In this document: piece after piece, positions 1,625-41,635 of the stretch
Position numbering within the stretch: the first letter of the stretch is position 1
Layout of the letters: the number at the start of each line of letters is the position of its first letter
Virus record (IMG/VR): IMGVR_UViG_3300045988_169872
Span: 1-41,635 of that record
Length of the DNA: 41,635 bases
DNA from: a virus
Reading direction: 5' to 3' (one strand)
Notes under the pieces: generated by a model
The model's database searches: none
Seen by the model: only the letters and a program-made list of their open reading frames with translations
What the model was told of the DNA's origin: nothing
Position numbers and translations under genes: made by a program

Positions 1625-2559
1625 AGTATCTTGCAATCGCCTTGGCGGCCGCGGCACTTTTGTCGGGGTGCTCGTGGACAGGGGAAATCAGTCGGGATTT
1701 TTATGTTGGAAATTCGAGCGTTAATCAATATAAAGAAGATTCTGTAGTTGGCCTTATCCCGATTAAAACTAAAGATGTTAAATATGGTCAGTCGGTGGAT
1801 TATCGACTCGATGTAAATAATTTCATCTACGCGGTTCAGTCGGAATTTTTACAGCATTTTCGAAACGTTGTGGTAATTAAAAACGAGTCTGAATGCTCGG
1901 AGTGTGGATTATTTTCTCGTGCGTCAGCAGGCGTTTCAATAAATCAGAATGCAGAAACTTACCGGTCTTTCTTGCAGTGTGACTTTTACGATAGAAGCGG
2001 ACAATTCTTAACTCGTCTTTCGAGTACGTCCAGTGGCGACGCTTCTCCTTCTGCGGCATTAAATCGAAAGACGGCTGTAAATGGTTTCCTGCTCGGTGCT
2101 TTGGCGGCGTCAACAATCAGCGACTATGGCGAATTCCTCAAAGAGGTGAGCGAGAACGCGATCTCAGAGGTTGTGAGCGAAGTTGGAAGACAGATTCCAA
2201 ATGATCCGAAATTAAATACTTCATTGGCGTTGCAGATGGCGGCTGCAAAGGCAGCGGAAGATGCCGAACAAGAGGAGGCGCGGAAGGAAGCAAAGAAGCG
2301 GCTTGCTGAAATGGATCGCTGCGTTCAACGAACCATTCGGTCGATTGATGATGGGATTTCGGATGCAACGACGATTGCTCAGGAAGCGGGCAGACAGTGC
2401 AGTTTGTTTGTTGAAAGAACGATCAGGACGCTGTGTGCTTCTGAAAAGTTTTCTAGTGAAGAATGCCAAATGCTCGCAGATAGGATGAACACGGAAGATT
2501 TCTTTGAAAAAAGATTTACGAGATTTATTTTAAATTACAGAATAAAAAAGAATTTTTAA
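1621..2559 (+). CDS. Lipoprotein of unknown function (moron, translationally coupled to int)
   Basis: The ATG at 1621 overlaps the int stop (ATGA). Signal peptide with lipobox: MKYLAIALAAAALLSGC. Sampled 60-nt window 1741-1800 is about 38% GC by hand count, against about 65% at 5101-5160. Confidence 0.75.
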   Translation: MKYLAIALAAAALLSGCSWTGEISRDFYVGNSSVNQYKEDSVVGLIPIKTKDVKYGQSVDYRLDVNNFIYAVQSEFLQHFRNVVVIKNESECSECGLFSRASAGVSINQNAETYRSFLQCDFYDRSGQFLTRLSSTSSGDASPSAALNRKTAVNGFLLGALAASTISDYGEFLKEVSENAISEVVSEVGRQIPNDPKLNTSLALQMAAAKAAEDAEQEEARKEAKKRLAEMDRCVQRTIRSIDDGISDATTIAQEAGRQCSLFVERTIRTLCASEKFSSEECQMLADRMNTEDFFEKRFTRFILNYRIKKNF

Positions 2560-2570
2560 AGGATGCGTAA

Positions 2571-2861
2571 ATGTTTAAAAAGGTATTATTGGTAATTGGT
2601 GTAGTGTTCTTCGCTGGTTCTGTGTTTGCAAGCGTACACGTTGGCGGATATGTTCGGAAGAATGGGACTTATGTTGCTCCACATTTTCGAACGAATCCAA
2701 ATTACACACGGAACGATAATTGGTCTACTCGTGGAAATATTAACCCGTACACGGGGAAACGTGGTACAAAATCTCCTGATTACGGATATGGAACATCTCG
2801 CAGATATCGAGGATATTCTTATAAGCCATATTCTCGCCCGTCTTATAAATTCAAATATTAG
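2571..2861 (+). CDS. Small secreted basic Tyr/Arg-rich protein, unknown function
   Basis: Signal-peptide-like N-terminus MFKKVLLVIGVVFFAGSVFA. Contains a recurrent bacterial motif GGYVRKNGTYVAPHFRTNPN...GNINPYTGKRG. Followed by a hairpin terminator. Confidence 0.65.
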   Translation: MFKKVLLVIGVVFFAGSVFASVHVGGYVRKNGTYVAPHFRTNPNYTRNDNWSTRGNINPYTGKRGTKSPDYGYGTSRRYRGYSYKPYSRPSYKFKY

Positions 2862-2866
2862 AAAAT

Positions 2867-2892
2867 CCCCTCCACCCTCTCGGATGGCGGGG
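2867..2892. terminator. Hairpin between convergent genes (bidirectional terminator candidate)
   Basis: cccctccaccctctcggatggcgggg folds with cccc/gggg, cca/tgg and cc/gg pairs. Followed by accatttt on the + strand. Confidence 0.5.
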
Positions 2893-2918
2893 ACCATTTT
2901 CGTGACGCCGCGAAGATG

Positions 2919-3212
2919 TTAGGCTTGTCCGGCTGCGGGGAGGTTTATTGCCGAAGATTCAACCGCCATGCGGTGCAAGAATGCGGCGCAAAGCCCTACG
3001 AGGATAGCCCACTGGTCGTTTGGTTCGCCCGGCCATTTCCAAGCGACTTCGACAAGCAATTGACAAACGCCACCGTTGCCGACAACATTTGCTTTCTCAA
3101 TATCTGCCAAAATATTTGAGAGAAGCGCGGCGAAGTGTTCTTTGTGGGGCGACGGGCCAAACATTTTTTCTAAGTCGCCCGTCAGGGTTTCAATCAGATC
3201 GTCTTGATTCAT
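2919..3212 (-). CDS. Hypothetical protein (97 aa), last gene of the leftward operon
   Basis: ATG at 3212 with an AGGGGG Shine-Dalgarno, 10 nt after the antirepressor stop. No recognisable motif. Confidence 0.55.
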   Translation of the reverse strand: MNQDDLIETLTGDLEKMFGPSPHKEHFAALLSNILADIEKANVVGNGGVCQLLVEVAWKWPGEPNDQWAILVGLCAAFLHRMAVESSAINLPAAGQA

Positions 3213-38316: not shown

Positions 38317-38604
38317 ATGCAGGACTACCACGAATACTTTCGATACCTCTTTGCCTTTGCGGTGGGTGCCATGGCTCAGTGCTTGATGTATTTGAACTCG
38401 TTGGATAAAGCGAAACCGTTCCTTTGGTGGGAATTCTTTGTGTCGGTAGCTCTGTCGGGGTTTGTCGGCTTTCTGATCTGTATGGCTGCACACTCTCACG
38501 GTTTGCCGGATGAGGCCGCAGGGGCTCTTGCTGGGTTGGGCGGCATGATGGGGAAAGACGGCGTGAGCATTCTGAAAAGTTTTTTAGAAAGAGGCGGCCG
38601 ATGA
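38317..38604 (+). CDS. Holin candidate (two transmembrane segments)
   Basis: FRYLFAFAVGAMAQCLMYL and WWEFFVSVALSGFVGFLICMAA, with a charged C-terminus. Immediately upstream of, and overlapping, the endolysin gene. Confidence 0.6.
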   Translation: MQDYHEYFRYLFAFAVGAMAQCLMYLNSLDKAKPFLWWEFFVSVALSGFVGFLICMAAHSHGLPDEAAGALAGLGGMMGKDGVSILKSFLERGGR

Positions 38605-38978
38605 AATATGGTTTCTTTGACGAAAAGGAGTTGCAGAGTCCGAAGGACCCGTACAAGTCTCCTTTTCCGCACGTGGTGCGCGATGAACTTTTGAACCTTT
38701 TGAACCGCATCCGCCGGGAGTGGGGAAAGCCGGTTCTCGTGAATTCCGGCTACCGCAGTCCGGAATACAACGCGACGATTCCCGGGGCCGTGCCTAATTC
38801 GTATCACACGAAAGGCATGGCGGCGGACATTCGGCCTGATGATCCGCAATTGATTCCGGAGTTTCAGGACTTGTGTCTGGAAATCAACGCTGACGGCGGC
38901 GTTGGCCTTTACGACGGTTTCGTTCATGTTGACGTGCGTGGTCATCACGCTTATTGGGACTACAGGAGTCGCAAATGA
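38601..38978 (+). CDS. Endolysin, peptidase M15 (zinc D-Ala-D-Ala carboxypeptidase-like) family
   Basis: SGYRSPEYNATIPGAVPNSYHTKGMAADI...GFVHVDVR, giving the H, D, H zinc-ligand pattern. Confidence 0.85.
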   Translation: MKYGFFDEKELQSPKDPYKSPFPHVVRDELLNLLNRIRREWGKPVLVNSGYRSPEYNATIPGAVPNSYHTKGMAADIRPDDPQLIPEFQDLCLEINADGGVGLYDGFVHVDVRGHHAYWDYRSRK

Positions 38979-39223
38979 TGGAGCTCAAAGACACTGCCGC
39001 GCTGATGTGTAGCGATGACTACAAAGATCGCTTCAAGGCGGAGTACCTGCAACTGAAGATTCGCCGAGACAAACTCGCTGCAATGCTTGTTAAATGGGAC
39101 ACTGGGAAATTAGGCTTTACGCCGACTTGTTCCCGTGGCCTTTATACGTTCCAGCTCTACACGATGGACGGCTATCTCGACATATTACGAAATCGCGCGA
39201 AACTCGAAGGGGTTGAGTTGTGA
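38975..39223 (+). CDS. Conserved hypothetical phage protein (82 aa)
   Basis: ATGA overlap with the endolysin stop; CAGGAG Shine-Dalgarno. Pattern FKAEYLQLKIRRDKLAAMLVKWDTGKLGFTPTC...YLDILRNRAKLEGVEL recurs in many phages. Confidence 0.6.
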   Translation: MMELKDTAALMCSDDYKDRFKAEYLQLKIRRDKLAAMLVKWDTGKLGFTPTCSRGLYTFQLYTMDGYLDILRNRAKLEGVEL

Positions 39224-39630
39224 AAGATTACGTCTACATGGTGGCGGTCGCCCTGGCTTTCGGGGCGGGGGGCTGGCTTACTTCTGCCCACTACGACAGA
39301 GAAATCGCACTCATGGAGGTAGCGCAGTCTGATGCGCTACGTGCGGCGGAGAGAAAGAATGCAGAAGGACTTTCGAAAGCAACGGACACGATTAACCTGG
39401 CGCAGGCTGAGTACAACGATTTGCGTGCTGAGCTTGATCGGGCTCGCGCCCGGCTGCGCCACGCGGACGGTCACAGCTCCGCCGGCGGAGATTCCGCAGA
39501 CGCTCTTGGTCGAAGAGTTGCCGAGCTGGAAGGCTTGGTTCAAAGACTGGCTGACTCTGGTTCAGAGTGCGGCCGACTCTATCAGCGATGCGCCGCAAAC
39601 CACGACGCACTGACGGAGATTCTTAAATGA
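39220..39630 (+). CDS. i-spanin (Rz-like)
   Basis: N-terminal TMD YMVAVALAFGAGGWL followed by a coiled-coil periplasmic region. GTGA overlap with the upstream gene. Confidence 0.7.
   Translation: MKDYVYMVAVALAFGAGGWLTSAHYDREIALMEVAQSDALRAAERKNAEGLSKATDTINLAQAEYNDLRAELDRARARLRHADGHSSAGGDSADALGRRVAELEGLVQRLADSGSECGRLYQRCAANHDALTEILK
39332..39613 (+). CDS. o-spanin (Rz1-like) lipoprotein fully embedded in the i-spanin gene in another frame (start uncertain; 39359 also possible)
   Basis: ICVLSLIGLAPGC lipobox-like signal, then a Pro-rich mature part CATRTVTAPPAEIPQ. The lipobox is not canonical (Pro at -2). Confidence 0.5.
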   Translation: MRYVRRRERMQKDFRKQRTRLTWRRLSTTICVLSLIGLAPGCATRTVTAPPAEIPQTLLVEELPSWKAWFKDWLTLVQSAADSISDAPQTTTH

Positions 39631-39995
39631 CCGATCTTGTAAATCATCCTCAGCACTACGCCGAGCATTACGACCACGAGGTGATTGAGCTTACTCAGCA
39701 TCTGAGTTTTTGCCTGGGGAATGCCGTGAAGTACATACTGAGAGCGCCTTTTAAGGGCACAGAGCTTTTGGATTTACAGAAGGCTGAGTGGTACGTGCGG
39801 CGCATGGTCGATGAGTTCTCTGCAGACGAATGCCGCGCCCAAGTGATCACACGCCGAGGAAACTTCTCTGGCATTTTGTGTTCTTTCCGGAACGCGCTCG
39901 TGACCGAGCTAGTCTTGGCCTGTGGCCGCGGTGACAAAGCATCGCTCAACACGGTTCTTTCTGATCTTCGAGAGAACATTAGTAGGAGGGAATAA
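39627..39995 (+). CDS. DUF3310-family phage protein
   Basis: VNHPQHY...GNAVKYILRAPFKG...DLQKAEWYV signature. ATGA overlap with the spanin stop. Confidence 0.75.
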   Translation: MTDLVNHPQHYAEHYDHEVIELTQHLSFCLGNAVKYILRAPFKGTELLDLQKAEWYVRRMVDEFSADECRAQVITRRGNFSGILCSFRNALVTELVLACGRGDKASLNTVLSDLRENISRRE

Positions 39996-39996
39996 G

Positions 39997-40200
39997 ATGG
40001 AAGCGGTAAAGGTTGTTTGCCCGAGGTGCGGTAAACGTCTCTTCGATCTTTCGTTAGAACGTCCGCCCGGCGGGACGGTGATGATCGTATGTCGGCGCTG
40101 CAAGACGCTTGATGTGCTTGATCTTTCTGTATACAATGACCCTAGCTTGCAGAACCGTTCGGATTCTGCTTCACACAAGGCCCCTGAGCCTAATCCTTAG
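39997..40200 (+). CDS. com: Mu Com-like zinc-finger translational regulator
   Basis: MEAVKVVCPRCGKRLFDLSLERPPGGTVMIVCRRCKTLDVL carries CxxC...CxxC with Com-like spacing, in a 67-aa protein. AGGAGGG Shine-Dalgarno at 39984-39990. Confidence 0.75.
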   Translation: MEAVKVVCPRCGKRLFDLSLERPPGGTVMIVCRRCKTLDVLDLSVYNDPSLQNRSDSASHKAPEPNP

Positions 40201-40246
40201 CGCCAACCGAGCGCACATTTACTTACGTATAGAGAACCTTTGAGTT

Positions 40247-40272
40247 CCTGTGACAAGGAGTTTTGTCATGGG
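40247..40272 (+). promoter_or_regulatory. Translation-inhibiting RNA hairpin over the start codon of the next gene
   Basis: ccugugacaa-GGAGUU-uugucauggg gives 10 pairs (2 of them G-U). AUG 40268-40270 is fully paired and the SD GGAG sits in the loop. Confidence 0.6.
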
Positions 40273-40918
40273 TGAATTTGCATCTAAAGGTGTCGCCGGT
40301 ACTGGCCTCGGTCTTGGTATCGCGGGAACCGCTCTCGGCGTTTTGGCCGGATCGAACGGTGGAAACGGCGGCCTTCTTGGCGGTCTCTTCGGCAACGGTT
40401 GCGCCGACAAGGTCTCGGCCTTGATGTCCGAAAACGCTATGCTGAAGTCCGAAAACTACAGCGACAAGGTGGCTAAAGACGTCTACGGGCAGTCCCTTAC
40501 TGACAATCGTCGTCTCCGCGACGAAATGTATGCTTTCATCAAGCCTCTGTCTGACGAAGCCGCGAGCAACCGTGAACGTGTCGCTGTTCTTGAAGCCCAG
40601 GTAGCGAAGGACGGCGAAATCGGTAAGCTTCGCGAAGAGCTTGTGCGCTCGCAGCTCGGTGCCCGCATCGATGAGTGCTGCTGCAAGACCAACGCCAAGA
40701 TCGATGCTGTGGCCGCTGCCGCGACTTGCGGTATCTCTCAGAACTCTGCTGCGATCACGTCCTTGCAGAACCTCGTGTCCGGTATCACGCGCACCATCAT
40801 CCCTCGCACGGCCATCTGCCCCGAGGTCATGGAGCGGTGGAACTCTTGGGTAGCGCCGACGGCTACCGCCCCAGCGGTTCAGCCGGTCACGGGTACCATC
40901 GACGTCCAAAAGGGTTAA
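40268..40918 (+). CDS. Glycine-zipper / coiled-coil / Cys-rich protein of unknown function (216 aa)
   Basis: GVAGTGLGLGIAGTALGVLAGSNGGNGGLLGGLFG, then coiled coil, then DECCCKT...ATCGIS...AICPEVMERWNSW. AAGGAG lies 7 nt upstream of the ATG. Confidence 0.65.
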   Translation: MGEFASKGVAGTGLGLGIAGTALGVLAGSNGGNGGLLGGLFGNGCADKVSALMSENAMLKSENYSDKVAKDVYGQSLTDNRRLRDEMYAFIKPLSDEAASNRERVAVLEAQVAKDGEIGKLREELVRSQLGARIDECCCKTNAKIDAVAAAATCGISQNSAAITSLQNLVSGITRTIIPRTAICPEVMERWNSWVAPTATAPAVQPVTGTIDVQKG

Positions 40919-40921
40919 GCC

Positions 40922-41257
40922 ATGAAACTTCCGATCGGAAACGCTCAAGCGGTCGTTGCTGAGTATTTCGAGTCGGTGATCCTGCCGGCTGCTTCGGCAG
41001 TCGGTGGAATGGCTCCGTTCGCCGCAGGGATGGCCGGCGGGCTTATCGCTCGTCGTATCCCGCAGCTGATGGAGCAGTATTCTCCGACATTGAAAGCCCT
41101 GGGTGTCCTGGACGCCGACGGAAAGCTCGATATCGACCTGCTGCACGAGGAGGCTGTCAAGGCACTTGAGAGGGGGCCCGTGATCATTGCGGGGTACCGC
41201 GCCGACCGAGGAGACCTCGATAAGCTGAAATCAATCATGGAAAAGTACGGGGGCTAG
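40922..41257 (+). CDS. Hypothetical protein (111 aa) with a central hydrophobic Gly/Ala segment
   Basis: AASAVGGMAPFAAGMAGGLIA. Starts 3 nt after the upstream stop. Confidence 0.55.
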   Translation: MKLPIGNAQAVVAEYFESVILPAASAVGGMAPFAAGMAGGLIARRIPQLMEQYSPTLKALGVLDADGKLDIDLLHEEAVKALERGPVIIAGYRADRGDLDKLKSIMEKYGG

Positions 41258-41259
41258 AT

Positions 41260-41442
41260 ATGGACGAAAAGGACCTGCGCAAGATGCGAGCCGAGCAGAC
41301 AGAAGACGCGCTTCTCAAGAAAATCGATCGGGTGCTTGATGCGGCAGAGGACGATCATTACCTCTCGCATGATGACATCTGCCTGATCGAAAAGGCATGG
41401 AAGGCCATTTGGTACGCGAAGGCTGTCTGCAAAGAAGCCTGA
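41260..41442 (+). CDS. Hypothetical acidic helical protein (60 aa)
   Basis: Starts 2 nt after the upstream stop. Followed by hairpins. Confidence 0.5.
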   Translation: MDEKDLRKMRAEQTEDALLKKIDRVLDAAEDDHYLSHDDICLIEKAWKAIWYAKAVCKEA

Positions 41443-41444
41443 CG

Positions 41445-41494
41445 CTGCCTTCGGGCAGAATTGAACCCCGGGTACCTTGCGGCGCTCGGGGTTC
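41445..41494 (+). terminator. Two hairpins closing the rightmost operon
   Basis: CUGCC-UUCG-GGCAG (41445-41458) and GAACCCCG-16 nt-CGGGGUUC (41463-41494). Confidence 0.55.
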
Positions 41495-41516
41495 CGTGTC
41501 TCAGGCGCTCGAAGGC

Positions 41517-41635
41517 GCTCGGGACATCTGAATGGATTCTATCAATTTCCTATGAATACTGGTGGAAATACTGGTGGAAAAATTAGACAGCGACCTGCAA
41601 GCCTTGCAATTATTGGTTGTTAAACGTCCCGTAAA
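41517..41635. repeat. Terminal direct repeat, copy 2 (identical to 1-119)
   Basis: Same 119-bp string as the window start. Confidence 0.95.

Follow-up and report, generated by a model that had tools for sequence, protein, structure and literature searches.

A Com-type translational switch, known from phage Mu where Com activates mom, probably operates on a different gene in a temperate phage of human-gut bacteria. We analyzed the whole of IMG/VR virus record IMGVR_UViG_3300045988_169872, 41,635 nucleotides (nt) long and referred to here as the window, in which a small zinc-ribbon gene resembling Mu com lies directly upstream of a gene that we call X, itself followed by two further genes, Y and Z. 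Around the junction of com and X, the predicted RNA carries three hairpins of the form recognized by Mu Com (HP1–HP3) and then an inhibitory hairpin that encloses the X start codon. We consider it likely, given these elements and their conservation in relatives, that Com activates translation of X through HP1–HP3 and the inhibitory hairpin, as a Mu-type switch acting on another cargo. The elements are as follows (aa, amino acids):

39997–40200, + strand: com-like zinc ribbon, 67 aa
40178–40191, + strand: HP1, AGGC[CCCUGA]GCCU, loop C-N3-GA with closing C-G, inside the com coding sequence (codons A-P-E-P)
40200–40214, + strand: HP2, GCGC[CAACCGA]GCGC, 7-nt loop, a CC-N4-GAG variant whose first base is the final one of the com stop codon
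40234–40247, + strand: HP3, GAAC[CUUUGA]GUUC, abutting the start-codon hairpin, with C40247 common to both
40255–40260, + strand: Shine-Dalgarno sequence AAGGAG of X, with AA in the stem, GGAG in the loop and a P(unpaired) of about 0.97 for GAG
40268–40918, + strand: gene X, 216 aa
40922–41257, + strand: gene Y, 111 aa, one hydrophobic segment
41260–41442, + strand: gene Z, 60 aa

The com-like open reading frame (ORF; MEAVKVVCPRCGKRLFDLS…IVCRRCKTLD…) has AGGAGG 7 nt upstream of its ATG and a TAG stop codon at 40198–40200, so that the end of the 67-aa CxxC…CxxC protein recorded in a first-pass annotation of this DNA, made from the letters alone, was exact to the base. Com proteins have four cysteines spaced CxxC-(about 16–20)-CxxC in one zinc finger, followed by a variable tail, and the window protein fits this description. 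Its Cys8, 11, 32 and 35 align with Cys6, 9, 26 and 29 of Mu Com (AF083977 35768–35953, exact match), and the two sequences have in common the motifs C-x2-C-x-K-x-L-F and (I/V)xCxRCK. The four conserved cysteines are predicted to coordinate zinc, and the tail is expected, by analogy with Mu Com, to be unstructured.

Family membership emerged most clearly from the group of X-linked homologues. A profile of seven of these aligned with Mu Com over the zinc finger with an hhalign probability of 96.8% (E 2.8e-10), and all seven matched PHROG 6417, "translational regulator" (window copy, E 1e-4). Four of the seven also matched phrog_13819, "gpCom", and Pfam PF10122 was matched by five of seven sister proteins (best E 3.3e-5). 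The window protein is 37%–43% identical to the protein at the same genomic position in locus L003, and this orthologue is 36% identical to Mu Com (E 7e-8). Judged by these sequence comparisons, the window protein belongs to the Com family. We noted that com had been missed by the gene finders used for several related assemblies, where it was hidden in a 235-nt "intergenic" gap (L158, 5752–5985; L160; L161), suggesting that Com gates are probably under-annotated and under-counted.

Mu Com recognizes 5'-CC(N)2-3GAG-3' displayed in the six-base loop of a short, C-G-closed hairpin directly 5' of a translation inhibition structure that holds the mom GUG (PMC6483171). We scanned for hairpins with at least 3 base pairs (bp), including the closing C-G pair, and a loop of C-N2-4-GA. 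As a positive control, the detector gave a single hit in Mu com–mom: AUGC[CUGCGA]GCAU, the known site, which lies 17 nt before the GUG. In the window it found HP1–HP3, all within 70 nt upstream of the X hairpin; HP1 and HP3 fit the Com-target form exactly, and HP2 is an N4 variant. The motif itself is not rare (nine hairpins on the whole plus strand, compared with about seven expected from shuffles), but three within a 70-nt stretch, where about 0.012 are expected, is far beyond chance. The com–methyltransferase operon of Escherichia phage Chuche (L162; 1186–1392, 1337) has a Com hairpin with a 2-bp stem, GC[CAUCGA]GC, that the detector missed, indicating that the 3-bp criterion can give false negatives.

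The start-codon hairpin lies at 40247–40272, beginning 47 nt after the end of com (40200). It consists of a 5' arm CCUGUGACAA (40247–40256), the loop GGAGUU (40257–40262) and a 3' arm UUGUCAUGGG (40263–40272), and all three bases of the AUG (40268–40270) are paired, as the first-pass annotation had placed them to the nucleotide. Two of the 10 pairs are G·U (U40249·G40270 and G40250·U40269), both of them involving bases of the AUG. RNAfold adds a pair between G40257 and U40262, leaving a 4-nt loop, and an outer helix (40242–40246 with 40275–40279) is also predicted in short contexts. The core hairpin has an energy of −11.7 kcal/mol; in a 41-nt context the fold reaches −12.9 kcal/mol (z = −3.16, with none of 200 shuffles as good). 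The start codon itself is backed by a conserved N terminus, MGEF/MAEFASKG, in X homologues. Rfam searches across 39800–41635 matched no family. A role for the hairpin as a terminator was considered and rejected, since no U-run follows it and a terminator scan found none there.

We then compared X loci, for which IMG/VR, metagenomes and assemblies were scanned with protein and DNA patterns. Eight divergent Com lineages were found directly upstream of X homologues (the window with the L038/L048/L060 group; L003; L072, L094; L093, L160; L108; L158; L241), with Com proteins 33%–53% identical to that of the window where measured. In all eight, com is co-oriented with X and immediately upstream of it, with gaps of 14–95 nt between the com stop and the X AUG. 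HP1, HP2 and HP3 recur at the same relative positions in seven of the eight; the exception, L108, has an HP2-like hairpin only. No Com-type hairpin was present between −85 and +24 in any of 25 distinct X loci that lack com, a status upheld under a looser CxxC scan. Among X loci, hairpins of this type are therefore associated exclusively with the presence of com. A DNA pattern scan of IMG/VR for the HP1–HP2 array alone had a com-like ORF adjacent in 12 of 119 matches, the remainder being presumably chance matches.

Across lineages, neither the loop ends (5' C, 3' GA) nor the closing C-G pair varies, whereas the loop interiors do. The stems change on both sides: GCGC/GCGC of HP2 becomes AAGC/GCUU in L072, L094 and L241, and GAAC/GUUC of HP3 becomes AAGC/GCUU (L003), AAAAC/GUUUU (L072) or AAAC/GUUU. 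In a MAFFT alignment of HP1 and HP2, 96% of cells were paired and five pairs showed double changes, which none of 500 shuffles equaled, with L108 misaligned so that helix 1 is slightly inflated. The formal pair count was limited to these two hairpins because differing loop lengths make MAFFT misalign HP3 and the inhibitory hairpin, for which changes were tabulated by script. Translation of HP2 gives RQPSA in L003 and L093 and, in another frame, KP(I/T)ELH in L072 and L094; in the window, L038 and L108 it is untranslated, indicating that the constraint acts on the nucleotides. In this region the UAG stop of the window com aligns with a CAG (Gln) codon in L093 (…SQRQPSAK*), and the window protein looks to have been cut short by a nonsense change that left the RQPSA-coding bases as an untranslated HP2. 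After the com stop, a further 24 codons can be read in frame before a UGA at 40273–40275 that overlaps the X start; this could be chance (p about 0.3).

The inhibitory hairpin also recurs with changed arms, given here as 5' arm, loop and 3' arm:

Window: CCUGUGACAA / GGAGUU / UUGUCAUGGG
L038 group: CCAUGACAA / CAGGAGUU / UUGUCAUGG
L093, L158 and L160: CCAUAGCAAA / AGGAG / UUUGCUAUGG

The arms of L093, L158 and L160 include two compensatory pairs beside the AUG (GAC…GUC to AGC…GCU). The probability that the AUG is paired was 0.7–1.0 in most of the Com–X lineages folded, with single AUG bases lower in L072 and L094. In these two, UCAUGG pairs with the HP3 loop itself (CC·UGA), and only one of the two structures, Com hairpin or inhibitory, can form at a time; the inhibitory structure has an energy of −8.2 kcal/mol, compared with −3.4 kcal/mol when the AUG is free, and a switch by alternative folding works for L072. 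Likewise, the Com-type motif of L108 (CCCGUGAG) is the strand that pairs with the start codon (CCCGUGA with UCAUGGG). Together with the family assignment and the hairpin topology, these comparisons support the proposal of the first-pass annotation that the regulatory architecture of Mu is conserved, and add Com-target hairpins that it had not seen.

In the closest relatives of the window (L060–L068 and L038–L057), Com is 85%–96% identical and the regulatory RNA almost identical, and X is only about 50% identical. This places a mosaic joint at or just after the X start codon and suggests, at the sequence level, that X alleles may have been exchanged behind a fixed gate.

We propose the following mechanism. 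The com gene would be transcribed together with X, Y and Z at the end of the lysis operon. On naked messenger RNA, the X start codon and part of the ribosome-binding region would be held in the hairpin, and X would be poorly translated. Com would bind HP1–HP3, whose C…GA loops with a closing C-G pair have the form recognized by Mu Com. HP3 abuts the inhibitory hairpin, and binding would favor an RNA conformation with an exposed AUG. Production of X, and probably of Y and Z through coupling, would then have to wait until Com had accumulated, late in infection.

Several observations weigh against this mechanism. The window protein itself scored 11.3 bits (E 0.25) against PF10122 (Zn_ribbon_Com), short of the cut-off of 22.9, and its direct BLASTP match to Mu Com was weak (E 0.03); the Com-family match expected by the first-pass annotation thus fails for the window copy in Pfam and holds for PHROG 6417 and the group profile. 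In a 100-nt context the z-score of the start-codon hairpin drops to −1.59, and of the 47 plausible gene starts in the window, which is rich in G+C, that of X ranks sixth for predicted start-codon pairing (0.88). Taken by itself the hairpin does not exceed chance, and the above-chance case comes from its compensatory conservation in relatives and from the adjacent Com-target-like hairpins. HP1–HP3 are individually weak (−1 to −4 kcal/mol), and independent lineages are few, so that the compensatory changes amount to only a handful of events. Moreover, forcing HP1–HP3 to form, or blocking 40232–40249, in thermodynamic models left the window AUG paired, and a simple alternative-folding switch was rejected for the window lineage on these grounds. 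In Mu, the C-terminal tail of Com has been suggested as needed for opening (PMC6483171). Finally, many X homologues have no com and a different hairpin in the start region, indicating that X can be expressed without Com.

That last hairpin deserves description. In 14 of 20 distinct com-less X loci (L004–L035), the segment from −9 to +12 forms a 9-bp stem flanking the AUG, which becomes a 3-nt loop (for example, GGAUUUGCC-AUG-GGUGAAUUC and GGGUUCACU-AUG-GGUGAAUUC). Several different 5' arms pair with the same conserved coding arm, the codons GGU GAA UUC. This is a second, Com-independent structured start region, and it provides independent support for tight control of X.

The com-less stem also shows that a structured start is a trait of the family independent of Com, and it thereby favors an alternative that we regard as unlikely, namely, that the hairpin merely damps or couples X translation and that Com is not the activator but has another role, such as autoregulation or RNA stability. 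The structure would then be opened by ribosomes terminating on com or by general unfolding, or it would simply keep X at a constitutively low level. The modeling, in which formation of HP1–HP3 leaves the window AUG paired, agrees with this, as does L003, in which com ends within the 5' arm, its stop only 14 nt ahead of the X AUG, so that ribosomes terminating there could open the hairpin. In most lineages, however, the window included, the com stop precedes the AUG by 32–95 nt, too far for a terminating ribosome to reach. Damping also leaves aside that no Com-type hairpin occurs at the X loci without com, that these hairpins match the Com target defined by experiment, and that in L072 and L094 a Com-type loop is itself the anti-AUG strand. 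Activation by Com remains our preferred explanation.

It is very improbable that the inverted repeats act instead in DNA or in RNA processing, as factor sites, an internal promoter or attenuator, or RNase sites. Their stems are short palindromes (AGGC/GCCU, GCGC/GCGC, GAAC/GUUC) with nucleotide conservation independent of coding, and a weak sigma-70-like match lies within com at 40109–40137. But the conserved loop letters and closing C-G pair are asymmetric, as befits a strand-specific RNA signal and not a DNA palindrome, and G·U pairs occur in the stems of L003 (GGGC/GCCU) and L158 (GGGC/GUCC). In addition, promoter and terminator scans found no more sites than in shuffles, and no U-run follows any of the hairpins. 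Coincidence, meaning a generic zinc ribbon beside a chance hairpin in a G+C-rich genome, can be dismissed as effectively refuted. In its favor, pairing is predicted at many of the gene starts in the window, and many generic zinc-ribbon Pfam families match the window protein as well as or better than the Com family does. But the linkage recurs in eight divergent lineages, of which seven have all three hairpins, conserved and with compensatory changes; com-less loci lack these hairpins, and bona fide com–methyltransferase operons have the operator in common with the X cassette.

The cargo itself matched no characterized family in our searches. X combines a Gly-zipper hydrophobic N terminus, a CCC motif with further cysteines, and a conserved C-terminal tail, ICPxVMxRxNSWxAPT. 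No match was obtained in Pfam, NCBIfam, PHROGs (including all 36 aligned homologues), PADLOC or a PDB profile search, and none of its 3707 homologues in a large protein collection carries a Pfam domain or a name beyond "hypothetical protein". As these family searches also gave no match to Mom or methyltransferases, the view of the first-pass annotation that the controlled gene is neither was correct, and this is not a com–mom operon in the strict sense. An AlphaFold model of low confidence (pLDDT 64.6, pTM 0.24) is essentially one long helix with a coiled coil at residues 67–175. On our reading of these features, X may be a bitopic inner-membrane protein with a periplasmic coiled coil.

X always heads the order X-Y-Z, in which Y always follows X, and Z always follows Y and ends the cassette. 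Three genomic contexts of the com-X-Y-Z unit were seen: in the window it closes the lysis operon, in L158 it comes after an integrase, and in L160 it diverges from a holin. Known Com cargos are products that would be dangerous if made early, including Mom, non-specific methyltransferases, bacteriocins and lytic enzymes (PMC3299994, PMC6240691). By analogy these would fit a harmful or strictly late X product, without proving it. In one locus (L112, 2217–3529), an insert of roughly 820 nt interrupts X after about codon 17, and the X frame resumes at 3089. The insert has an ORF at 2351–3004 that by eye resembles an HNH or NUMOD-type endonuclease, and a match to the group I intron family (Rfam RF00028) at 2875–3083 (41.5 bits, E 5e-9, below the gathering score of 50); it is probably a homing intron inside X.

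The remaining features of the window include the lysis genes that precede the cassette:

266–1624: integrase
38317–38604, + strand: LydA-type holin
38601–38978, + strand: M15 endolysin
38954–39223, + strand: crAss001_48-like protein
39220–39630, + strand: likely i-spanin (weak Rz-like PHROG matches only, E 0.05–0.08)
39332–39613: embedded out-of-frame ORF with a lipobox (LAPGC), inside the i-spanin-like ORF
39627–39995, + strand: DUF3310

The last two ORFs before DUF3310 are likely, from their sequence features, to be an embedded spanin pair. The phage would then have its own spanins, making it unlikely that X is one despite its i-spanin-like layout. The window represents a complete temperate phage of ∼41.5 kb with overlapping ends. 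An identical sequence, TTCCTATGAATACTGGTGGAAATACTGGTGGAAAAA, occurs at both ends (31–66 and 41540–41580), indicating a circularly permuted or terminally overlapping assembly. Repeats of ACTGGTGGAAA adjoin the integrase gene (263–286) and resemble arm-type integrase binding sites in attP. The phage is identified as a BPP-1-like podovirus, and not a Mu-like transposable phage, by its T7-type portal, GP7-type capsid protein and Bbp19 homologue. Close relatives are prophages bordered by a NAPRTase gene 99%–100% identical to that of Duodenibacillus massiliensis, pointing to a human-gut member of Sutterellaceae as the host. A Com scan of species-representative genomes aimed at the host returned only distant Clostridia and Oscillospiraceae zinc ribbons.

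To our knowledge, Com is the only well-studied phage translational activator of its type. A switch of this kind on X would extend its mechanism to a new cargo and a new host group, the prophages of human-gut Sutterellaceae. We know of no structure of a Com–RNA complex, and the loci described here form a comparative data set for Com–RNA recognition, with invariant loop ends and closing pair and covarying stems. The X family numbers about 3,700 unannotated homologues, and the probably tight post-transcriptional control of X makes it a sensible target for functional study. More tentatively, and with real doubt, com-X-Y-Z may be a mobile four-gene cassette in which X is a late envelope effector (for accessory lysis, exclusion or a bacteriocin-like role), and a Com-family RNA code may extend across Proteobacterial phages. 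If so, X would be membrane-anchored with periplasm-facing cysteines and harmful enough to be restrained either by Com or by the hairpin with the AUG as a 3-nt loop. The code would consist of arrays of C-G-closed C…GA loops, and Com regulons and cargo swaps would become predictable from sequence.

The principle of Com ahead of unrelated genes is not new. In Pseudomonas, com-like genes are reported ahead of llpA and other bacteriocin genes and ahead of genes for tailocin lytic enzymes and levansucrase (PMC6240691), and Com upstream of methyltransferase genes is documented (PMC3299994). The non-mom cargo put forward by the first-pass annotation is therefore less novel than was implied. Like the window, the llpA-type loci have a Com homologue directly upstream of a cargo other than DNA modification, in prophage or tailocin late regions, with its role presumed (PMC6240691). 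They differ in cargo family and in host, Pseudomonas as opposed to Sutterellaceae, and the review text at hand describes no RNA targets (PMC6240691), whereas the cis elements of the window have been defined comparatively. What is new here is the cargo family, the host group, the comparative definition of a multi-hairpin Com operator, and the evidence that such an operator is common to methyltransferase and non-methyltransferase cargos.

Other zinc ribbons encountered were set apart from this system. In phage contigs of Oscillospiraceae type (L073–L091 and L115–L127), a Com-like zinc ribbon of 44–53 aa (…CCPVCGKRLFDAD…CKRCK…) has an ATGA overlap with the start of a 498-aa gene, and in Clostridia genomes a double-ribbon version lies about 280 nt upstream of a 163-aa gene. 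Neither has Mu-type C…GA hairpins, and neither was counted as a member of the same system.

The likeness to Mu itself is close. In both phages a small CxxC…CxxC protein is encoded immediately 5' of its target on the same transcript. Both have an inhibitory hairpin whose loop presents GGAG and whose 3' arm contains the start codon (in Mu, UCCCAC[GGAGAAACAUU]GUGGGA), preceded by a 4-bp, C-G-closed C-N3-GA hairpin (AUGC[CUGCGA]GCAU in Mu and GAAC[CUUUGA]GUUC in the window), and in both the regulatory RNA overlaps the 3' end of com. On the other hand, one such hairpin was detected in Mu compared with three in tandem in the window, and com overlaps its target by 50 nt in Mu but is separated from it by a 67-nt spacer here. 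The window phage is a temperate, integrase-bearing BPP-1-like podovirus, whereas Mu is transposable. Its com directly follows the lysis genes with no dedicated promoter evident, and its cargo is a predicted membrane coiled-coil protein cassette in place of the Mom DNA-modification enzyme.

The closest operators were found in Pseudomonas phages, in a survey of what lies downstream of com homologues, which the first-pass annotation had suggested and which, besides X in the eight lineages, found methyltransferase and Mom-like genes. In B3 and UMP151 (com with a Dam methyltransferase) and JD024 (com with a Mom-like gene), two hairpins 20–25 nt apart lie in the 3' end of com: AGGC or GGGC[C..GA]GCCU (CAGC/GCUG in JD024), then GCGC[C..GA]GCGC. 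Those of B3 and UMP151 are nearly the same as HP1 and HP2. The difference is that the methyltransferase or Mom-like cargo of these phages overlaps or abuts com, and that the window has added a third hairpin and another cargo. Related com–methyltransferase and com–Mom-like operons are described in FluMu and Pnm1 (PMC3299994), and in one IMG/VR locus (L187) the array lies upstream of a gene whose N-terminal motif, read by eye, is like that of C5-methyltransferases. An operator array common to methyltransferase operons and the X cassette makes the Com gate appear modular, with exchangeable cargo. The operator looks, from these sequences, to be older than its cargo: a gate of the com–methyltransferase type in which the cargo was replaced by X-Y-Z and a third hairpin was added.

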